DNA of 56,589 nucleotides from a virus (lineage: Duplodnaviria > Caudoviricetes), in the IMG/VR virus record IMGVR_UViG_3300027419_000038, positions 1 through 56,589 of that record; one strand, written 5' to 3'. The notes under the pieces were generated by a model that was given only the letters and a program-made list of their open reading frames with translations, had not been told where the DNA came from and ran no database searches. Each line of letters opens with the position of its first letter. Positions within the stretch are counted from its first letter, which is position 1. Both the position numbers and the translations under genes were made by a program. This document shows positions 9,052-55,935 of the stretch, piece after piece.

Positions 9052-9555
9052 CTAAGTTGTAGCGTCACCTATATATACTTTTGGGTAGGTTTGGTTTTCA
9101 GGACGAGTACCCAATCCTGGGGTGTATTTCACCGCTTTTACCTTTGTAAAGTTATTCTGAGTCATAGAATCATATAGATAATCATTATAATTATCCTCAT
9201 AGATTGCAGGATGATTTGTAGGGTCATAAGCTTTCCCATTCCAGAATAAAAAACAATGGCACTCTTCAGAATTGTACACATAAATCATGTGTATATTTCT
9301 TTCACCAATATTATATAGGTAATCTGCAAATGCTGTAGCCTTATCATCACAATCCCCTTTTCCATCGTTAAGTAATTGACTGGGGGCTTTGGCTAAACGT
9401 CCCCCATCAGAATCGTATGGTAAGTCGGCGATTATATTAAAATAGCATTCCACTGATTCATTTCCTGCGAGGATTGTAACATTATTTATCCCAAATGTAC
9501 AATTTACCCCCACTAAAACAACCAGATACATTACAAATAATAGTTCAGTTTTCAT
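9052..9555 (-). CDS. Secreted/membrane transglutaminase-like (papain-fold) cysteine peptidase
   Basis: Hydrophobic N-terminal signal; GKGDCDDKA (Cys), CHCFL (His), AYDPT (Asp); GGAGGG RBS before ATG 9555. Confidence 0.8.
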   Translation of the reverse strand: MKTELLFVMYLVVLVGVNCTFGINNVTILAGNESVECYFNIIADLPYDSDGGRLAKAPSQLLNDGKGDCDDKATAFADYLYNIGERNIHMIYVYNSEECHCFLFWNGKAYDPTNHPAIYEDNYNDYLYDSMTQNNFTKVKAVKYTPGLGTRPENQTYPKVYIGDATT

Positions 9556-9623
9556 AATATCCCCTCCGTTTTCCAATTCTCATTATGTATGCGGGGGTAT
9601 TTATATTTTTTGGAATTAATTTT

Positions 9624-9638
9624 TAAATAAAAAAAAAG
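9624..9638 (-). terminator. Oligo-T archaeal terminator after the RNA ligase gene
   Basis: T-tract on the minus strand immediately after the stop. Confidence 0.55.
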
Positions 9639-9641
9639 CCT

Positions 9642-11054
9642 TCAACTACGTGTTGCAGTGAAGGCTTGGTATACTTTACCAGATAGTCGTTTCCCATCAG
9701 GATAGAGTTTCGCATAGGTTTGCATCTTTAATGTAACCTCTGCATCTTCTCCCACCTCTTGGTTGACCCTGGCACAAATCTGTTCGAGTTCCTCTGTCAT
9801 ATCAACCTTTTTTATGAATTTCCCAAAGGTTGATTTTATTTTCTGTTCTGTGTTGGAGTCTTTTAGCAGTGGTTCTGGGTATTCTTCGCTTAATTCTTCT
9901 TTTACGAATGCTATGACATATTCTATTGGAATCTCAGCCAGGTCTTCATAGGAGTTTTCCTTTAGTTTGTTGAGTGCTTTGCGTATATCATGGGTTGGGA
10001 TTCCACATGCTTGTTTTATATGCCCTTCCCGTACACTGATGGCCTTACATTTGTTTAGGGTGCGTCCTGATTGCCATACTGCACCTTCAATTATGATTTT
10101 CCCAGGGTTTTCCTTCTGGAAGTTCATATTGATTTTCTCAAAGTATACTTCCATTTCTTTATATAATGCTCTTAAATCATCAGCACTGGGTGCGTCTTCA
10201 TCCATTTTAACCCAGGAGTCATATCTGTCTAGGAAATCTGCTGTGGGTAATGCCCCATATCCCCCATCAAGGGGCATTATTTTAAAGACTTCCATCGCAC
10301 GTGGGATTTTATGGACGTGGCATAATGCGTCGAATAATGTGGATTCTACAAGGTCTCCTTCACTATGGAATGCACAGAGTCCTACTAATTGGACGTTTTC
10401 AAATTCATCCCCTAGGAACCGGTAGTCTATTTCATGCAGGTTTTCTCCGCCGATGAGTTCGTATGCCATGGAGAATCCTGTTTGGGTTACTGCGTTTATC
10501 ATTCCCCCTGTGTAGGCTTCGAATGCCATGTCATAGAATTTCCCAGAGAGTTCGGGCATTAAACGGGTTTTCATCAGGACTTCTACGATTTCCCCTTTCT
10601 GGTTTTTGAGTGGGTACATTAGGATGTTTGTACCGTCTTCTTTCAATCGTACGGTAGGTAATTCGAGTTCGTGCCGCATATCTGGGTATGTTATCTTCGG
10701 CATCCCCTGCACGTACTGTTCCACCATTTCTTTGTCTACCTGGGTTATCATGAGACTCCCCATGTGCCCCCCCCGGCTTTTACAAATGTATCCTTGCACC
10801 TGCCGCCCCTGGGGGCTTTCTATTTCAAAAGGGTGGATGTTTTTAACACTAGTGTCCACCAGTTCTGCAAATTCTTCTCTTTCCATTATTACCATCTCCC
10901 ATTCAGGCCCCCTCAATACATTAGCAATTATGAAACCAATTGTAAAGAAGACTATATACATGAAATATTCCATATATACGTGCCCTACATACATTATAGC
11001 TAACATTACTACCAATATCCAAAATACTAATGATACCAATTGCATTCCACTCAT
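9642..11054 (-). CDS. ATP-dependent RNA ligase (Rnl2/Rnl3-like covalent nucleotidyltransferase) with N-terminal two-TM extension; probable internal start at 10886
   Basis: QGMPKI, motif I KEDGTN, Ia KTR, III YELIGGEN, IV EGAVW, V KCK; first ~48 aa hydrophobic. Confidence 0.8.
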   Translation of the reverse strand: MSGMQLVSLVFWILVVMLAIMYVGHVYMEYFMYIVFFTIGFIIANVLRGPEWEMVIMEREEFAELVDTSVKNIHPFEIESPQGRQVQGYICKSRGGHMGSLMITQVDKEMVEQYVQGMPKITYPDMRHELELPTVRLKEDGTNILMYPLKNQKGEIVEVLMKTRLMPELSGKFYDMAFEAYTGGMINAVTQTGFSMAYELIGGENLHEIDYRFLGDEFENVQLVGLCAFHSEGDLVESTLFDALCHVHKIPRAMEVFKIMPLDGGYGALPTADFLDRYDSWVKMDEDAPSADDLRALYKEMEVYFEKINMNFQKENPGKIIIEGAVWQSGRTLNKCKAISVREGHIKQACGIPTHDIRKALNKLKENSYEDLAEIPIEYVIAFVKEELSEEYPEPLLKDSNTEQKIKSTFGKFIKKVDMTEELEQICARVNQEVGEDAEVTLKMQTYAKLYPDGKRLSGKVYQAFTATRS

Positions 11055-11752
11055 ATTAATTCCTCCTTCACTCCGAAATCTGATATTCTATTGTCATGTG
11101 CCATATAATTTCCAATTATGATGTTGTATTCTCTTTTTGACAGCCCTATTGATGAGCAGTAGGGGTCACTTTGTATATCTACACTTCTCCCGGAACGCCA
11201 CATGATTAAAATACATAGTGCTAGTATAATTCTTTCACTTGCAGCCCGACTGTGTAACTTCTTAAGACCACCATTCATTTTAAAGTAGTTGAGAATATTC
11301 TTCACATCTTCAAGTTGTCCAGGGGTCATCTGATAGTTTGTTTTACAAACATCTGCAAATGCCCAATACTCTCTGTACCGGTGGTTTTTCATCTCACCCT
11401 CAGTGTCACGGTCGTATTTCCGTTCCAAGTAATGTACTTTAAAGTGTTTCTCTTTACGGGTTAAGAACTGGTGTTCTTCTTTCCCTATCAGGATTTTACC
11501 CTCATTCTGCCGTTCTGCCATCTGCTTTGGTTTGTTATGCTTCACACGTGAAGAGTCTGTTGTTTGCGGGTCTGAGATGAATCCACAAGCTATACATATT
11601 TTCTCCCCTCTATGATTATCTGCATAAGCATAAGCCAATGCTCCACAGTCTGGGCAGTATTTGGCTGTCCTTTGGTGTTGTTTTAGGCTTTCTATTGAAC
11701 CATTATCCTCAATATCGCCCCCCACACCCATTTCCTTCTGTTTGTCCGTCAT
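11051..11752 (-). CDS. TFB/TFIIB-like transcription factor (Zn ribbon plus one cyclin-like repeat)
   Basis: CPDCG....D..RGEKICIACGFI TFIIB-type Zn ribbon; C-terminal helical region with SRAASERIILALC. Confidence 0.75.
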   Translation of the reverse strand: MTDKQKEMGVGGDIEDNGSIESLKQHQRTAKYCPDCGALAYAYADNHRGEKICIACGFISDPQTTDSSRVKHNKPKQMAERQNEGKILIGKEEHQFLTRKEKHFKVHYLERKYDRDTEGEMKNHRYREYWAFADVCKTNYQMTPGQLEDVKNILNYFKMNGGLKKLHSRAASERIILALCILIMWRSGRSVDIQSDPYCSSIGLSKREYNIIIGNYMAHDNRISDFGVKEELI

Positions 11753-12302
11753 GTGTTGAATCCTCCAAGTATTTTTGTATTGTTTTCACTGTGGATGTAA
11801 TGTCACACCCCTTTGCCTGCCTCTGTATTGTGTTTAAGTCTTCTCCTATATTATCCTTTTGGATAAGCGAACAGCGTATGTGGGTTTGGTAAACTTTAGT
11901 TTGTCCCTGCACCCTTGATTGTAGTAAGCCCATGGATTCCATCGTATTGGATAATCTCCTAGCATAATCTATGCTTATCTTGAGTGTTTGGGCTATATCA
12001 AATGATGTAAATTCGACCCCAGAAACGTATAGTGGGAGGAGTTTTTCGAAATAAATCTTATGCACTCTTCGCATTAAGGCTAATTTGCCATGTACCTTCT
12101 CACATTCTTTACAGGAGTAACGGTACCCACTTAAATTGTTATTGTTTCGATTAAACTCCTTTATAGGTTTAACCTTCTTACACCTATTGCACGTTTGATG
12201 AGTTACAATCTTATCTGAATTGTAATAGGTTACTTTAACCCCCTGGGGGTCTGGGAGTTGGTAATTCTCCTTCTCAGGGATTTTAGCGATTTCCGAAATC
12301 AT
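11709..12302 (-). CDS. Zn-finger plus winged-HTH DNA-binding protein
   Basis: CNRCKKVKP..EF.......GYRYSCKEC; FTSFDIAQTLKIS..YARRLSNTMESMGLL wHTH. Confidence 0.7.
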   Translation of the reverse strand: MISEIAKIPEKENYQLPDPQGVKVTYYNSDKIVTHQTCNRCKKVKPIKEFNRNNNNLSGYRYSCKECEKVHGKLALMRRVHKIYFEKLLPLYVSGVEFTSFDIAQTLKISIDYARRLSNTMESMGLLQSRVQGQTKVYQTHIRCSLIQKDNIGEDLNTIQRQAKGCDITSTVKTIQKYLEDSTHDGQTEGNGCGGRY

Positions 12303-12660: not shown

Positions 12661-12843
12661 TTAAAGCCTCCTCTTGATTCCTGATTTTTCTAATTTGAAT
12701 ATGTGTCTTGCTTCCCGCCGTGAGTTGATGTTAAGGGCTGTATGGTGCCAGGCGAAGTAAATGGATAATCGTATCCCCTTTCCCTGACTCCTGGAGTGTT
12801 TAAACCCATATTTGAAGTGCCGTATGTCTTCTTTTATATGCAT
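12661..12843 (-). CDS. Hypothetical basic protein
   Basis: Fills the operon gap; GGGGGAG RBS. Confidence 0.5.
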   Translation of the reverse strand: MHIKEDIRHFKYGFKHSRSQGKGIRLSIYFAWHHTALNINSRREARHIFKLEKSGIKRRL

Positions 12844-13709
12844 GGAACTCCCCCATAATAAAAGAAATGTGCCACGATTTTATCCACATCCCGATTCAGT
12901 TTGGATAAAAAACTGTCATTATACACTTCAAAGTCCCAGTCTCCACTGTATAGGTTAAATTTACCCTTATCCCTGGCTACTCGGTCGTCCCCTACTGAGT
13001 TTTTCCTTGCACCCCCATCACGATAGATTCGCAGCCCCCTTACATTGTACTGTTCGTTGTATTTGGTTTTAAGCATACTGTATCCAGATTCATCTATAAC
13101 ATACGTGTTGCATCGCCCCACATCCTCATGGAAGCAGCAGTATCGGGTTCCTTCCCATTCAGTGTATGCAATCATATCCTCTAGTTTAAATTTGTTAAAG
13201 GATTGTTTTGTATGGAATGTATGGTCCTTGTCTCCAGGGTTTCGAGGTTTACGGTCGGTGTGGCTCCTTATCATTGGGATACCGTACATTTTTTCTATGT
13301 ACTCGGCTACATGGGTTTTCCCACTCCCGGACTCTCCTATTATGCATAGTATCTTTGGGCGTTTCAAAAACCTTTCCAGTGCTCCCATCGACCCAAGTAT
13401 AGGTATCCTGTGAGCTTTCGCATATTCCCTTTCCTGTGCAACGCCTGGTGAAGTTTTCCAGCCGGGTACTAATACCATTGCATCGGAGGAATCTAATAAT
13501 CCTAAGCTTGATTCTATCACGTCCTCGTATGTTAAATCTCCTTCTATTAAACATGATATGAAGTCGTTTCCAGGAACCATGGGGATTCCACCCTTTTTAC
13601 GAACTATCCCCCCATAGATTCCCATCTTTTTCAAATTCCGAATATATTCCATTTCACTGCCAGAGAGTTTACCAGCAACATATATTTTGTCTTTAATCAC
13701 TTTTAACAT
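12834..13709 (-). CDS. Fusion: DUF4406/nucleoside 2-deoxyribosyltransferase-like domain + guanylate kinase-like P-loop domain
   Basis: KIYVAGKLSG...SDAMVLVPGWKTSPGVAQEREYA; GESGSGKT, SHTDRKPR, DHTFH, YVIDESG. Confidence 0.85.
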   Translation of the reverse strand: MLKVIKDKIYVAGKLSGSEMEYIRNLKKMGIYGGIVRKKGGIPMVPGNDFISCLIEGDLTYEDVIESSLGLLDSSDAMVLVPGWKTSPGVAQEREYAKAHRIPILGSMGALERFLKRPKILCIIGESGSGKTHVAEYIEKMYGIPMIRSHTDRKPRNPGDKDHTFHTKQSFNKFKLEDMIAYTEWEGTRYCCFHEDVGRCNTYVIDESGYSMLKTKYNEQYNVRGLRIYRDGGARKNSVGDDRVARDKGKFNLYSGDWDFEVYNDSFLSKLNRDVDKIVAHFFYYGGVPCI

Positions 13710-16814: not shown

Positions 16815-17408
16815 TTACCTCCGTTTAGCCTTGCCTTTTTCAGGTTTTGGCTGTATTCTACTACTTAACATATCGGCATGGTGCACGATATGTGCTTCTG
16901 GGGTTTGCGGGTCGATGAGTGACCCCCATCCCCTTCGTACGTCGCCGTGGTGGCTTCCCACCACATGGAGTATTGGGTTTAATTTGGCTTTAGGGAATTT
17001 AAGTTCCTTGGCAGCCTCTTGGATTATTAAAAATCCTTCCCCAATGTGTTCTAATTGCTTAGATATGTCAGTTCGTTTGTATGGGACTTTTTCAGAGATT
17101 GCACCACTTTTTAGGATGTTATCCTGGTAGTGTCTCGCTTTTCCCACATCATGGAGTGTTGAACCAACATCTACGACGTTTGTGTCTACTTTTGACTGGA
17201 AATGGTTTGCCATTATCATGGAAAGTTTGTTTACGTCCACGGAATGGTCTTTTAATCCACCTTTATAGTTGTGGTGGTATTTGGTCGACCCTGGCATTGT
17301 GAAAAAGCCGTTTCCAGCTATTTCTAATGCCTTTTCGATTAATTGCAAGTATCGGGGGTGCAATTCATCAAATTCGATTCCCAGTTTTTCAATTATTTGT
17401 GAGGGCAT
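16815..17408 (-). CDS. HD-domain phosphohydrolase (YhaM/Cbf1-like, lacking OB domain)
   Basis: PGSTKYHH..GGLKDHS, LHDVGK, EHIGEG, SHHG, TPEA.IVHHAD. Confidence 0.9.
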   Translation of the reverse strand: MPSQIIEKLGIEFDELHPRYLQLIEKALEIAGNGFFTMPGSTKYHHNYKGGLKDHSVDVNKLSMIMANHFQSKVDTNVVDVGSTLHDVGKARHYQDNILKSGAISEKVPYKRTDISKQLEHIGEGFLIIQEAAKELKFPKAKLNPILHVVGSHHGDVRRGWGSLIDPQTPEAHIVHHADMLSSRIQPKPEKGKAKRR

Positions 17409-23024: not shown

Positions 23025-23098
23025 AGCCGGATGAGGGATTTGAACCCCCGACAAGAAGGTTACAAACCTCCCGCTCTGCCTTCCTGAGCTAAACCGGC
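23025..23098 (-). tRNA. tRNA-Thr(UGU)
   Basis: GCCGGTT..TAGCTCAG..GGAGG-TT TGT AA-CCTTC..GGTTCAAATCC..ATCCGGC; no encoded CCA. Confidence 0.9.
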
Positions 23099-23100
23099 AA

Positions 23101-23275
23101 AGCCCCGTGTTGGATTTGAACCAACGTTCATCGGTGTTTGCACAATGTGGGGACGCTTCCAGTCAGTACGTCATGTTCCCCATCTTCTCCAACATTCTCA
23201 CGCTCGGTACGACCAGGAGCACGAATGTTAAAGTGTTCTGCAACCGATTGCCACGCCTGACTTGGCTAACGAGGC
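23101..23275 (-). tRNA. tRNA-Cys(GCA) with 102-nt intron (23136-23237) at 37/38
   Basis: ATCGG-TT GCA G|intron|A-CCGAT; BHB central helix TTGC/GCAA with 3-nt bulges; U73 discriminator typical of Cys. Confidence 0.9.
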
Positions 23276-23377
23276 AATTTAGTAGTTTTTATCCTGGATA
23301 CCAGCCAGTTGTTTTTTGTTCTGCGCTCATACCAAAAAGCACGGAAATTGTGTTTTGAATGGCTATGGGTTAGCCAA

Positions 23378-23449
23378 TAGGAGAATTGGGACTTGAACCC
23401 AAGATACAAGGTCTTCAGCCCTGCGTTTTCCCGACTAAACTATTCTCCT
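23378..23449 (-). tRNA. tRNA-Phe(GAA)
   Basis: AGGAGAA/TTCTCCT acceptor stem; CAGGG-CT GAA GA-CCTTG; GGTTCAAGTCC. Confidence 0.88.
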
Positions 23450-23452
23450 GAA

Positions 23453-23527
23453 CGGGGACGGGGGGATTCGAACCCAACCGACTTCCAGATTAACAGTCTG
23501 GCGTTCTACCTCCTGAACTACATCCCC
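23453..23527 (-). tRNA. tRNA-Asn(GUU)
   Basis: CCAGA-CT GTT AA-TCTGG; G73; T stem has two extra nt. Confidence 0.88.
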
Positions 23528-23529
23528 AA

Positions 23530-23617: not shown

Positions 23618-23768
23618 TCCCCTCAGTCGGATTTGAACCGACGACAATCCGGTGTCTGCGTAGAGGAAAGGAATTACAGTGGGTGGGCAGACAGGCACGT
23701 TTCGTGCCCGTTCCACTCACCTTTCACTCTCTCTACAGCCGGACGCTCTTCCTCTGAGCTATGAGGGG
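23618..23768 (-). tRNA. tRNA-Tyr(GUA) with 79-nt intron (23654-23732) at 37/38
   Basis: C1-G72 and A73 (archaeal Tyr identity); TCCGG-CT GTA G|intron|A-CCGGA; relaxed BHB CTGT/GCAG. Confidence 0.9.
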
Positions 23769-24599: not shown

Positions 24600-25439
24600 T
24601 TAGAACCCACATCCACAGGGTTCTGGTCGGTCTCCGAGTCCTTTGCAGATTACTTCGGGTGCGTAGATTTTTTCTACTTCGAAGGTTCCGTCTTTTCGGA
24701 AGTGGAGTATTGGGAATCCTGCGGGTTCTGGGTGGAGTCCTAGGTCTTGTGCGTAACTACCAGGGTAATCTAGGAAGTGTCCTGTTAGTATTAGGGATTT
24801 TGTGTGTTCCCTGATTACTCTTTGTCTTCCGTTAACTACATCTACATAGTTGTCATAGATTGGTTTGTGTTCTAATCTATGCACGTGACCCATGGCGAAG
24901 ATGTTAGCTTTTTTGTACTTCTCACTCATTTTACTGGTGCTGTTTATCTTAGTATGTGGTAATTTAGCACCACTTGACCCATGTGTAGTTATCATTTTCC
25001 ACGTGTAATCTCCAACAGTTATTGTATGTTGGAGGAAGCTGTTAGCATAAGGCACATCTAAGAACTCACATAAATTTACGAGTTCGGTCATGCCAGTATC
25101 CTTACCACGTTTATCATGATTTCCATCATGAAGGGCAGTACATCGTTTCCTAATAGGCTTCGCCTGTTGTTTGAAATACCTTTTCTGAAGGTCTGGGGTC
25201 ATGGTTTGCTCGTAGACTCCTATTCCTATACTATTTTTTGTAGCATATTCCAGGTAATCTCCCATCCCACACCATGGTATCCTATATCGTTTGAGATAAT
25301 CGAACATCCATTCGGTGAAATCTTTCAACCATGTTAGACCGGCGATATGAATATCCCCAATCAATGCATAGCGTAAATCCTTCTGAGAGTCAATATAAAC
25401 CTCTTCAGTAATATCCATACCTTTTCCTAAGTCTAACAC
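24600..25439 (-). CDS. Calcineurin-like metallophosphoesterase
   Basis: GDIH, GMGD, GNHD, THG, MGHVH motifs. Confidence 0.92.
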   Translation of the reverse strand: MLDLGKGMDITEEVYIDSQKDLRYALIGDIHIAGLTWLKDFTEWMFDYLKRYRIPWCGMGDYLEYATKNSIGIGVYEQTMTPDLQKRYFKQQAKPIRKRCTALHDGNHDKRGKDTGMTELVNLCEFLDVPYANSFLQHTITVGDYTWKMITTHGSSGAKLPHTKINSTSKMSEKYKKANIFAMGHVHRLEHKPIYDNYVDVVNGRQRVIREHTKSLILTGHFLDYPGSYAQDLGLHPEPAGFPILHFRKDGTFEVEKIYAPEVICKGLGDRPEPCGCGF

Positions 25440-25451
25440 ATCTTAACCTCC

Positions 25452-26366
25452 TTATGGGATGAAATTCCCTTCGTAATGTAAGAAAACATATCCATTGTTA
25501 CATATAAGCTCATCAATGGATTTACCTTTAGCCCATCCAGCTATATCTGCTTTTACACCATTAACTAAGCCTATATAGTGCCCGTACCATACTCCATCAA
25601 GACAACGAACTTGGCAGTGAACTCCTTGACAGGTTAATCCTAACGCCCTGCACGCTGGAAGCAGAACATCGTTAACTAAATCCGCACAATTACCTTTTCG
25701 GCTTGTTACTGTAGTGTATTGGCTCTGTTGCTGGTCATAGTAGTACACATATTTGAAATACTTTGCAATGACATTCCTAATATCTTGTAAAGTGTTTATT
25801 GTACCTAATTTACGTAATTCGGCTAGTACCCACACGTCTCCTTCAACTACACCTGGTTTTACAACCTGGTACGTTGGAATAGAACTCCACGTTTTAGGAC
25901 CAACTATTCCATCAGGAGTATGTCCGGTGACTGATTGGAATGCTTCAACAGCTAATTCAGTTATCCCACCAAACACTCCGTCTACTGTAGCTGTGTAAAA
26001 TCCGAAATCTTGTAGTTTTTGCTGTAAGAATACAACGCACTGGTTTTGGTTTCCAATGCTTAGAACAACTTTAGAACACCCTTCGAAATCCCTAGGCTCT
26101 GTATTAACTGGAACTTCAACTGGGGGTTGCTCAGCTTCAGTAGAAGGTGGATTCACATACACTGCTGGACCTTTAGCATAGTTAATAATCCTCTGAACCA
26201 TATCTGCAAATTTACTCCCAGAGACATAATCTCCAGTCAAATCTTCTTTTAAGTTTACACTATCAGGTAATCTGTTATTCAACTTCACATAAGCCGAATA
26301 TCGCTTATACATTTTCCTGAATGTTTCATTTGGGATTAATGTTGTTGTATCTGATATATTTCCCAT
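25452..26366 (-). CDS. pei: Endolysin: pseudomurein endoisopeptidase (PMBR + PG_binding_1-like domain + peptidase C71-like domain)
   Basis: ETFRKMYKRYSAYVKLNNRLPDSV (PMBR); LQQKL..FGF..VDGVFG..T..AV..FQ...DGIVGPKTW; YVYYYD..GNCAD..VRC..GHY. Confidence 0.85.
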   Translation of the reverse strand: MGNISDTTTLIPNETFRKMYKRYSAYVKLNNRLPDSVNLKEDLTGDYVSGSKFADMVQRIINYAKGPAVYVNPPSTEAEQPPVEVPVNTEPRDFEGCSKVVLSIGNQNQCVVFLQQKLQDFGFYTATVDGVFGGITELAVEAFQSVTGHTPDGIVGPKTWSSIPTYQVVKPGVVEGDVWVLAELRKLGTINTLQDIRNVIAKYFKYVYYYDQQQSQYTTVTSRKGNCADLVNDVLLPACRALGLTCQGVHCQVRCLDGVWYGHYIGLVNGVKADIAGWAKGKSIDELICNNGYVFLHYEGNFIP

Positions 26367-53583: not shown

Positions 53584-53601
53584 AACCGAAAGTTTATAAA
53601 G
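53584..53601 (+). promoter_or_regulatory. BRE-TATA promoter of right-arm operon
   Basis: aaccgaaagTTTATAAAg ~45 bp upstream of AGGAG RBS/ATG 53646. Confidence 0.75.
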
Positions 53602-53645
53602 CAAGGAGTTCTAACATACATGAGTATAAACAGGAGCTGATAAGA

Positions 53646-53960
53646 ATGCAAGACCCAATAAAAGCATTAAGCAAGATTCATAGGATGGTTCATGACGTAT
53701 ACACCACCCTAGAAGACATAGACAAATACATAGACGATACGGGATTATTAGAAGACTTTGAAACCATAGAAATGGCAAAAGAACACTTAAACACGGCAGA
53801 TGGTATAACAGACCTACTATTAATAACCAAAAACAAAGACGGGGACAAAAGAGCATTATTCGTTGGAGATGTACACGAATTACACCGATGGGTAGCCTGG
53901 GATGTGGAACATAACGAGGTATTAAAACAAAAAGAATTAGATAGCAAAGCAGGAGACTAA
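53646..53960 (+). CDS. Hypothetical protein
   Basis: AGGAG RBS; first gene of plus-strand operon. Confidence 0.7.
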   Translation: MQDPIKALSKIHRMVHDVYTTLEDIDKYIDDTGLLEDFETIEMAKEHLNTADGITDLLLITKNKDGDKRALFVGDVHELHRWVAWDVEHNEVLKQKELDSKAGD

Positions 53961-53966
53961 ACAACA

Positions 53967-54320
53967 ATGTCAACAAAACTAACAATCAAAAAATGGGGAG
54001 TAGTAACCGGAATCAAAGTATTAGACCCAGACGGGTTCGACAGAACAGATTCCAACGTTATGAGCAGAACATACACCTTAAAAGAATTCATACTCGGAGC
54101 AGCACACTGCACATGCCAATGGCGAAAAGGAAGCATAATCCTAATCGACGAACTATTAGACATATTCAAAGAACTTGAAACAAAAGAACAGAACCAAGCT
54201 ATAGTAAAACAGAAATCCCTGGAGATAATAAACCAAATCACAGCAGGATACGCCCTACCAAGCCCTACAGAAATAATAAACATCTATATTGAAACATCCA
54301 AAAAACTAGGAGGCGAATAA
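53967..54320 (+). CDS. Conserved phage hypothetical protein
   Basis: GIKVLDPDGFDR..T..EF motif recurrent in phages. Confidence 0.7.
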   Translation: MSTKLTIKKWGVVTGIKVLDPDGFDRTDSNVMSRTYTLKEFILGAAHCTCQWRKGSIILIDELLDIFKELETKEQNQAIVKQKSLEIINQITAGYALPSPTEIINIYIETSKKLGGE

Positions 54321-54623
54321 ATGATAAAAACAAAAATAATTTCAACAACCAAAGGATTAAAAGGAGTAACCTTAGTAGATAGTGAATGGAAGGACTACTG
54401 TAAAATAATAGACCAAGGATACATCCTAAACGAAGCAAATAGAAGCTGGATACACCCAGACGACCTCGAACTATATAAATCAATGATTGAAAAGCAAAAA
54501 GAATGCATTCTAAACGCACACAAAAAAGAAATAAGAAAACGTGAGAACCAATGGACCATAGCATACATAATACTAGGATTATGCTTCTTAGCCGTATTAA
54601 TATTTAACATATGGTGGGCGTAA
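54321..54623 (+). CDS. Membrane protein (C-terminal TM)
   Basis: WTIAYIILGLCFLAVLIFNIWW; AGGAGG RBS. Confidence 0.65.
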   Translation: MIKTKIISTTKGLKGVTLVDSEWKDYCKIIDQGYILNEANRSWIHPDDLELYKSMIEKQKECILNAHKKEIRKRENQWTIAYIILGLCFLAVLIFNIWWA

Positions 54624-54793
54624 CAATGGAATGGAGTAAACGACCCTGCCCAAAATGCTGGGGAAGAATGGAAATGCGAAGCCTAAACAACTACTACGAA
54701 ACCCATGAATACAAATGCGAAGACTGCGGACACACCTACCACGTAGACGGCTTAGACATACAAAAACATGAAAAAGACGGAGACATAACATGA
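54611..54793 (+). CDS. Zinc-ribbon protein
   Basis: CPKC...YKCEDCG; likely start MEWSK. Confidence 0.65.
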   Translation: MVGVTMEWSKRPCPKCWGRMEMRSLNNYYETHEYKCEDCGHTYHVDGLDIQKHEKDGDIT

Positions 54794-54959
54794 ATAAGAA
54801 TAGCACACAAGTCAGACCCAGAAAACGAAATCATAGTACACATCAAAGGAGACACAAAAGCACTAATGAGGGCAATGATGGCATTAAGAAAAGAACACAT
54901 CCTACTACAATGGTGGATGGGCATATACGCTGAAGACGGATAAAAAGGAGACACTAACG

Positions 54960-55205
54960 ATGGAAAGAGAACCCACACAAGAAGAAATGGACAAATACGA
55001 CGAATACATCCGAGAAACACTAAACTTCCCCGAAGAAGAACCCCCACAACCATTCACAACCAAAATAACATACAAACAACCAGAATACTACCTACTAGAC
55101 GCATACTGCCCACACTGCCAAGAACAACTCACAATATGGAACGACGGCTGGATAAGATGCACATACATAATGTGCGACTACGAAAAACAATTCGTGAGGC
55201 AATAA
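54960..55205 (+). CDS. Zinc-ribbon protein
   Basis: CPHC...C....C; AGGAG RBS. Confidence 0.65.
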   Translation: MEREPTQEEMDKYDEYIRETLNFPEEEPPQPFTTKITYKQPEYYLLDAYCPHCQEQLTIWNDGWIRCTYIMCDYEKQFVRQ

Positions 55206-55379
55206 CGATGGAAATAGACGAATTAATCACAAAATGGGCATACGATATAGCATACTTACTAGAACAACATACAATAATACGATTAAAAGGAAAAACAAGC
55301 CCAACACAAGACTACTTCACAACACTAGACCAAATACAAGAAACAGCACTCAAAACAGCACTAAAAGGAGACTGATACG

Positions 55380-55610
55380 ATGGAACCAAGAATAATAAGA
55401 ATATCAAACCCACTAAACATAACAAAAAGCATAATACAAGCCATAAGAAACTACACCCCATTCGCAGTAACAGGACATGGATACATAGTGGAATACAAAC
55501 AAAAACTATTCCGAGTAGAATGGAGCGTTAGAGAAGTCACCGGAGAAATGGTACCTGGCTTAAACCGAAAACACATAGCAGAATACGAATTAACCGAAAA
55601 GGAGGAATAA
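55380..55610 (+). CDS. Hypothetical protein
   Basis: AGGAG RBS. Confidence 0.6.
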   Translation: MEPRIIRISNPLNITKSIIQAIRNYTPFAVTGHGYIVEYKQKLFRVEWSVREVTGEMVPGLNRKHIAEYELTEKEE

Positions 55611-55611
55611 A

Positions 55612-55935
55612 ATGAACGCAGGAGACTTAATAGGACGAATAATAGGAATCGGAATCCTATTACTCATAATTGGAGCAATAGGATACGGAATGATAATGAT
55701 GCAAGTAAACGGAGGATTCCAAGGACGAGGAATCATAAACGACAAATACACCAACACCAACGGAGAACACATAATAGAAATAGTAACACCAGGCGACACA
55801 GACACACGACACCTCAAAATATACAAAATAGAAGCACAAATCTACAACGGAGTACAAGTAGGACAACTATACGAATACGGAGGAGAACACAACACAATAA
55901 ACTGGTACGACATACCCTACGACGACGGATTCTAA
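55612..55935 (+). CDS. Membrane-anchored protein
   Basis: N-terminal TM helix; AGGAGG RBS. Confidence 0.7.
   Translation: MNAGDLIGRIIGIGILLLIIGAIGYGMIMMQVNGGFQGRGIINDKYTNTNGEHIIEIVTPGDTDTRHLKIYKIEAQIYNGVQVGQLYEYGGEHNTINWYDIPYDDGF

Follow-up and report, generated by a model that had tools for sequence, protein, structure and literature searches.

A hydrophobic extension is fused in frame to a ligase gene in the 56,589-nucleotide genome of a tailed virus (Duplodnaviria; Caudoviricetes; IMG/VR record IMGVR_UViG_3300027419_000038), which is called the window below. The open reading frame (ORF) lies at 9642–11054 on the minus strand and very probably encodes an ATP-dependent RNA ligase. Among the relatives examined, the hydrophobic extension at its N-terminus is unique to this genome. 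We consider it reasonably probable that the protein belongs to an unnamed clade of ATP-dependent RNA ligases, built from N-terminal and adenylyltransferase parts of the Rnl1/Rnl3 type and a helical C-terminal domain, to which a membrane extension has been fused here alone. The frame itself is as an earlier examination of the letters alone (the sequence-only reading) had described it: an AGGAGG-led ATG at 11054 is coupled to the stop codon of the upstream gene, and the frame remains open through a second ATG. The ligase ATG (11052–11054) overlaps the upstream TGA (11051–11053) by 4 nt (ATGA). The coordinates of all features are collected in Table 1.

Identity of the ligase

The protein displays the features of the covalent nucleotidyltransferase superfamily: a KxDG motif I, motifs Ia, III, IV and V in order, and the nucleotidyltransferase fold. 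Across 56 diverse homologues only ten residues are invariant (K138, D140, G141, R164, E199, G202, E323, G324, K335 and K337), and together they make up motifs I, Ia, III, IV and V in that order. P119 and K120 of the GMPK element, which is listed with the N-terminal subdomain, are conserved in at least 90% of the same homologues. The sequence elements that the sequence-only reading had quoted as ligase motifs are all present in the translation—GMPKI at residues 117–121, KEDGTN at 138–143, YELIGGEN at 198–205, EGAV at 323–326 and KCK at 335–337—and K138 is predicted to be the AMP-accepting lysine.

The AlphaFold2 model of the full protein has a mean predicted local distance difference test score (pLDDT) of 84.2. 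Foldseek searches with this model return T4 Rnl1 as the best match (E 3.7e-09) and MthRnl next (E 4.7e-08), followed by Palaeococcus Rnl3, fungal Trl1 and T4 Rnl2; ranks 1–25 are all RNA or tRNA ligases, except for one Aquifex entry titled a putative DNA ligase by its depositors. In structural alignments DNA ligases score at most 9.2, and RNA ligases lie 3 to 8 Z units above them. All structural matches span model residues 54–351, equivalent to the N-terminal and adenylyltransferase parts of Rnl3, Rnl1 and Trl1. The OB-fold domain that follows the nucleotidyltransferase domain in DNA ligases is absent from both structure models, which bear out the earlier description of a helical, non-OB C terminus. 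The proposed Rnl2/Rnl3-type label fares less well: Rnl3 is indeed among the nearest structures, but its companions there are Rnl1 and Trl1, not Rnl2.

Relatives of the protein link it to known RNA ligase families. The Pfam family RNA_ligase (PF09414) is matched by 8 of the 56 homologues at E ≤ 0.01 and PF09511 by one (E 6.7e-05), and in the ESM Atlas the ligase has viral clusters as neighbours, which carry PF09511 or PF09414. Three of the 56 homologues are fused to the N-terminal MJ1316 'RNA cyclic group end recognition' domain: in P0034, which is 33% identical to the window ligase, MJ1316 (E 6.4e-19) occurs together with PF09414 at 32.2 bits (cut-off 27), and in P0062 the domain (E 2.9e-05) is slightly below the cut-off. 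Six homologues carry inteins of the LAGLIDADG type exactly inside the catalytic motifs. In P0013, P0017, P0037 and P0050 the intein interrupts motif I after KxDG and before TN, between G141 and T142, and in P0119 and P0144 it interrupts motif V between the first K and CK. Motif conservation, fold, intein positions and the Pfam links of relatives thus all support the original proposal of an RNA ligase.

A putative unnamed clade

A word-indexed search yielded 21 homologues of the ligase, 38–46% identical to it, and an exhaustive search yielded 192 representative clusters at E ≤ 0.001. A profile built from the 56 homologues had no match below E 0.1 among PDB sequences, where T4 Rnl2 stood at E 0.76. 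Members of the clade occur in viruses (loci L001 and L002), in a Methanofastidiosum metagenome-assembled genome (MAG) and in a Methanobacterium MAG; in the order of the latter, 24 of 301 sampled genomes contain homologues. Alignments of the full model to Rnl3 and Rnl1 end at about residue 351 and leave the C-terminal domain unaligned. With the model of this domain (residues 352–470) Foldseek found no match at E ≤ 0.001, and no Rnl3 entry stands among its best 50 structural matches. The C-terminal domain is what separates one Rnl family from another, according to an excerpt of a published account (PMC12645390). Because the families differ in this domain, and because the present one is without a confident structural match, the protein looks like a member of an unnamed Rnl clade. 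The literature searches, judged by titles and abstracts, turned up nothing on the clade, and supplements of virus catalogues might list it.

At six of 23 genome loci with a ligase homologue (L018, L024, L025, L027, L031 and L032) we also observed a conserved ORF of ~85 aa located 200–300 nt upstream. The ORF matches no Pfam family above the cut-off, and in L031 it comes after a weak HATPase_c_2-like ORF. The small ORF and the ligase homologue may form a conserved chromosomal module.

The hydrophobic extension

Hydrophobicity was measured as the Kyte-Doolittle mean over 19 residues (KD19), the measure on which the transmembrane reading is based. Residues 1–47 are strongly hydrophobic: KD19 reaches 2.64 over residues 6–24 and 1.83 over residues 26–44, with just a shallow dip, to about 1.1, between them. 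AlphaFold models a single helix over residues 3–47 (pLDDT 57–75). The sequence-only reading had proposed a two-pass membrane anchor; the hydrophobic length is sufficient to span a membrane, and two spans are a reasonable, though unproven, interpretation.

The extension (residues 1–53) is real DNA. A Logan contig from run X1, built with a different assembler, is identical to the record over 9600–11800, including a run of five G inside the extension, at a depth of 15.8. An assembly slip is therefore ruled out, whereas a population variant could still be present, as the record was probably built from this same run. A look-up for RNA data sets with the region listed none.

The stretch also has several characteristics of a coding sequence. 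Frame 0 is free of stops over its 56 codons, while the two remaining sense frames contain 11 and 2, and of 20,000 mononucleotide shuffles only 0.44% lack a stop (p about 0.004). T occupies 59% of the second codon positions. A codon-usage log-likelihood for which 32 long genes served as the training set ranks the stretch above 250/250 and 249/250 off-frame windows, and on a par with in-frame windows from hydrophobic parts of other ORFs. The AGGAGG and ATG context of the ligase start and its 4-nt overlap are typical of gene starts in the virus genome: the coding strand has ten sites with the pattern AGGAGG-N3-10-ATG, and six of these, including that of the ligase, are called gene starts. Two of the remaining four lie at most 6 nt from a called start, one starts another listed ORF and one is intergenic. 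From its sequence, the extension is probably translated.

The five-G run and the second start

The in-frame fusion hangs on five consecutive G in codons R48-G49. With one G fewer, tandem TAA TAA codons (10886–10891) would come into frame, their final A shared with the ATG at 10886; such 1-nt overlaps of stop and start occur four times elsewhere in the virus genome. With one G more, a TGA at 10903–10905 would be in frame, just before the Shine-Dalgarno-like element of the second start. The fusion is separated from a layout of two ordinary genes by a single base, and therefore fits a recent fusion, a variant or an error better than an old, selected architecture. It is most likely recent.

The second ATG had been read as an internal alternative start with its own Shine-Dalgarno-like element. 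The element is present, but the start corresponds to the N-terminus of the family: all 18 aligned homologues that have an N-terminus begin at the M54/M57 position. The 'second internal start' is thus the conserved, ancestral start of the family. The element before it is weak evidence of initiation, because only 28 of the 104 GGAG-N3-10-ATG sites on the coding strand are gene starts. A TATA-like TGTATATA at 10953–10960 on the minus strand was considered as an internal promoter and rejected, as the genome holds 134 matches to the consensus with at most one mismatch and 142.7 are expected. Dual isoforms of the ligase, one tethered and one soluble, are possible but unsupported.

The extension among relatives

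Several results weigh against a translated membrane anchor on an RNA ligase, and most of them come from relatives. Query residues 1–44 are aligned by none of the 150 representatives listed among the 192 matches. Of 167 fetched proteins, the window protein alone has KD19 above 1.6 at its N-terminus, and the two others that exceed this value do so in internal strands. A fused hydrophobic extension is found at none of 35 loci with DNA context. These loci were assembled from sets of 12 and 23 after exclusion of L038 (truncated at a contig end) and of L014 and L015 (duplicates of L012 and L013); among those retained, L002 is near-identical to L007 and L006 to L009. In the first set, the conserved start is preceded by an in-frame stop within 24 codons at all 12 loci. 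No standalone homologue of the extension was found among proteins of 30–98 aa in the protein collection. Thus, retention of the anchor in homologues, which the sequence-only reading had proposed to check, was found nowhere among the 150 listed representatives, the 166 other proteins and the 35 loci. L027 does have an in-frame open stretch of 62 residues upstream of its ligase, with KD19 of 1.53, and its counterpart is broken by stops in sister loci. This stretch looks accidental, and is an instance of a leader that is open by chance.

A different layout, which had been named as evidence against a fused anchor, occurs in one lineage. In L004 and L005 (2 of the 35 loci) a separate small membrane ORF, of 74 or 33 aa, ends at the ligase start. 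The layout is therefore present in these relatives, but the ORF is dissimilar to the extension, and BLASTP of the L004 ORF against it gives no alignment.

Other searches for relatives of the region were unproductive. An apparent tblastn extension of the L001 match to query residue 12 is spurious, as the alignment crosses stop codons. N-terminal peptide patterns matched 76 stretches in metagenome contigs and the upstream zinc-ribbon protein matched 8 stretches in viral contigs, none of them a virus relative in either case.

The remaining contrary results concern the coding signal, the reads and the enzyme. Among in-frame windows the extension ranks low by codon score (5.6th percentile). The run X1 contig is probably not an independent sampling, and at contig level minor variants at the G run, on the exact length of which the fusion depends, are invisible. 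The window protein itself has no Pfam match beyond DUF7659 (E 0.084), with no PF09414 at E ≤ 0.1 and no PF09511, and no meaningful match came from NCBIfam, PHROGs or PDB sequences either. Neither Pnkp nor any other RNA end-healing partner was recognised among the 42 window ORFs scanned.

Alternative explanations

It is highly improbable that the window protein, instead of being an RNA ligase, joins DNA, is an enzyme of the capping type or is a catalytically inactive relative. Such a view could draw on the assignment being made from sequence and models, and on the absence of a sequence-family match for the protein itself and of a confident structural match for its C-terminal domain. It would have to account, however, for the invariance of all catalytic motif residues, for the margin of 3 to 8 Z units by which RNA ligases exceed DNA ligases, for the missing OB domain, and for the presence of PF09414 and the MJ1316 RNA-end domain in relatives.

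Two further alternatives concern the extension. We regard it as unlikely that there are two genes—a membrane protein of ~50–54 aa followed by a soluble ligase of 414–417 aa—and that their fusion is a one-base length error in the G run, or a minority or very recent variant that serves no selected function. Loss or gain of one base restores a textbook layout in which the stop overlaps the ATG at 10886 or sits 8–17 nt before both ATGs, overlaps of 1 or 4 nt between stop and start are common in the virus genome, in L004 and L005 a small membrane ORF of its own adjoins the ligase start in exactly this way, and the relatives all start at M54/M57. Against this, both assemblies have five G at a depth of about 16, a five-base homopolymer is seldom miscalled in a short-read consensus, the L004 ORF is unrelated in sequence, and the extension is without a standalone homologue in the protein collection. 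An untranslated extension, with the true start at M54/M57 and 10896–11054 serving as a leader or intergenic stretch that is open by accident, appears to us quite improbable. The starts of the homologues also agree with it, as do the accidental open stretch of L027 (1 of 23 loci), the AT-rich and T-rich composition, and a codon score that is low for coding sequence. The open frame has a chance probability of 0.44%, however; a strong AGGAGG-ATG overlaps the upstream stop, and none of the nine other such sites in the genome is in a clear non-start context; the codon score exceeds nearly all off-frame windows; and a 168-nt non-coding gap would be unusual among tightly packed genes.

Genome and gene setting

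The record is a complete genome with direct terminal repeats and a G+C content of 39.5%, and its minus strand holds ~93 tightly packed ORFs. Family searches identify a large terminase, a portal and a tail tube protein. Together with a pseudomurein endo-isopeptidase (Pei), these features point to a complete tailed archaeal virus whose methane-producing host has a pseudomurein wall and is of the Methanobacteriales type; the host would follow from the presence of Pei and the known distribution of pseudomurein.

The zinc-ribbon protein encoded upstream of the ligase had been labelled TFB. Its coupling to the ligase through the ATGA overlap stands, but the label finds only sub-threshold zinc-ribbon matches: the TFIIB ribbon is matched at E about 7e-04 with bits under the Pfam and NCBIfam cut-offs, and family searches detect no cyclin fold. 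At 233 aa, the protein is shorter than TFB. On the other side of the ligase gene, the run of nine T is presumably an archaeal oligo-T terminator, and the ligase would therefore be the last gene in its transcription unit. Directly after the ligase gene, at 9052–9576, we observed a weak transglutaminase-like protein (E 0.036) with a hydrophobic N-terminus.

The virus has genes for tRNA-Thr, tRNA-Phe and tRNA-Asn at 23025–23528. The fourth tRNA gene beside them is read as tRNA-Tyr(GUA) with an anticodon-loop insertion of ~79 nt, an intron at the canonical 37/38 position, the 3' part of which can pair with the anticodon.

Other genes could bear on nucleotide and RNA metabolism. A fusion at 12834–13709(-) joins a nucleoside 2-deoxyribosyltransferase-like domain (DUF4406, phrog_355) to a guanylate-kinase-like P-loop domain (phrog_1815, E 2.4e-21); this P-loop protein was rejected as a polynucleotide kinase, being guanylate-kinase-like and of nucleotide metabolism. 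A calcineurin-type metallophosphoesterase (24600–25439(-), phrog_7339 'DNA repair exonuclease') and an HD-domain phosphohydrolase (16815–17408(-)) are the sole candidates seen that could conceivably serve in RNA end-healing. No RNA-repair partner was recognised in two chromosomal homologue loci either. Near one genome end, a block of ORFs at 53600–55900(-) has very hydrophobic translations, poor codon scores, no Shine-Dalgarno elements and large gaps, and may consist of membrane proteins or of non-coding sequence.

Table 1. Positions of the ligase ORF, its parts and other features in the window
Feature	Position	Strand	Basis or value
Whole ORF: hydrophobic extension, linker and RNA-ligase-like protein; 470 aa, ATG start	9642..11054	(-)	ORF list, sequence
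AGGAGG Shine-Dalgarno element, 7 nt ahead of ATG 11052-11054	11062..11067	(-)	sequence
First hydrophobic segment, residues 6-24	10983..11039	(-)	KD19 = 2.64
Second hydrophobic segment, residues about 30-47	10914..10967	(-)	KD19 = 1.8
Linker RGPEWEMVI, residues 48-56, modelled disordered	10887..10913	(-)	pLDDT <50 for 48-55
Run of five G, codons R48-G49	10908..10912	(-)	sequence; in-frame fusion depends on exact length
Ancestral start region: ATG M54 (10893-10895), ATG M57 (10884-10886), Shine-Dalgarno-like GGAGATGGT (10891-10899)	10884..10899	(-)	
N-terminal subdomain, residues 57-115	10710..10886	(-)	conservation and structure alignment
Nucleotidyltransferase domain, residues 116-351	10002..10709	(-)	structure search and structural alignment
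Motif I KEDGTN	10626..10643	(-)	K138, D140, G141 invariant in 56 sequences
Motif III YELIGGEN	10440..10463	(-)	E199, G202 invariant
Motif IV EGAV	10077..10088	(-)	E323, G324 invariant
Motif V KCK	10044..10052	(-)	K335, K337 invariant
All-helical C-terminal domain, family-specific, residues 352-470	9645..10001	(-)	two models; pLDDT 86.6
Run of nine T just past the ligase stop codon	9629..9637	(-)	sequence
Zinc-ribbon protein gene, upstream, translationally coupled to the ligase ORF, 233 aa	11051..11752	(-)	
Fourth tRNA gene, beside the other three	23618-23768	(-)	found by Rfam, missed by ARAGORN
Pseudomurein endo-isopeptidase, Peptidase_C71 (Pei) and PG_binding_1 domain	25452-26366	(-)	Peptidase_C71 E 4.5e-11

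Comparison with known systems

The architecture of N-terminal subdomain and adenylyltransferase domain is common to the window ligase and the Rnl3 enzymes (MthRnl 5d1o, Pyrococcus Pab1020 2vug, Palaeococcus pacificus 8uce). Unlike these, the window ligase has no PF09414 match and carries a hydrophobic N-terminal extension; past residue 351 it gave no alignment to the Rnl3 dimerisation and C-terminal domains, and may differ there too. From T4 Rnl1 (2c5u, 9do4) it differs by the absence of PF09511, a family matched by one of its 56 relatives, and it may also differ in its C-terminal domain, which did not align. T4 Rnl1 acts with Pnkp against the PrrC anticodon nuclease, whereas no Pnkp partner was recognised in the window virus.

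The ligase domain of fungal Trl1 represents the Rnl6 clade in PMC12645390. Excerpts of PMC6379707 and PMC11404444 describe Trl1 as a ligase fused to kinase and cyclic phosphodiesterase domains that requires a 2'-phosphate end; the window ligase has neither of these additional domains. A closer parallel in genome content is offered by archaeal tailed viruses such as HGTV-1, which have tRNA genes and Rnl2-family ligases according to PMC8651126. The window virus resembles them in having an RNA ligase and four tRNA genes, one of them with an intron. Membrane attachment has been described for RNA-processing enzymes such as RNase E, in which a short hydrophobic element, N-terminal or internal, serves as the anchor (PMC13657362, bioRxiv 10.64898/2026.03.25.714103, both in excerpt). 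As these excerpts portray them, the tethered enzymes are nucleases with conserved anchors, in contrast to the ligase described here with its singleton anchor.

Proposed function and meaning

By analogy with the fold relatives of the ligase, K138 would take AMP from ATP, the AMP would move onto a 5'-phosphate RNA end, and attack by a 3'-OH would seal the RNA break. The likely use of such an enzyme would be repair or joining of broken RNA during infection, tRNA above all. The hydrophobic stretch of ~50 residues, fused in frame ahead of the family start, would be long enough for a two-span hairpin. Translation from the coupled start at 11054 would then tether the ligase to the cytoplasmic side of the membrane via a short flexible linker, and the old start at M54/M57, still inside the frame, may give a soluble form too.

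A functional fusion in the full sense—a tethered ligase made from ATG 11054, a soluble one made from the ancestral start, and a new clade defined by its C-terminal domain—is in our estimation doubtful. If true, RNA would be repaired or circularised at the cell membrane in the course of infection, where cleavage by membrane-associated host RNases, for example, could be undone. The enzyme would also be the first transmembrane RNA ligase described. The literature searches, judged by titles and abstracts, listed no transmembrane or membrane-anchored RNA ligase. As a singleton, the membrane extension is currently a curiosity, and serves mainly as an example of a small membrane ORF and an enzyme becoming fused through a single-base change in a homopolymer.

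The clade to which the ligase appears to belong has a wider significance. It is absent as a family from Pfam and PHROGs, which makes it a possible new Rnl family that deserves biochemical study, and the intein sites and MJ1316 fusions of its members offer clues to its active site and to its recognition of RNA ends.

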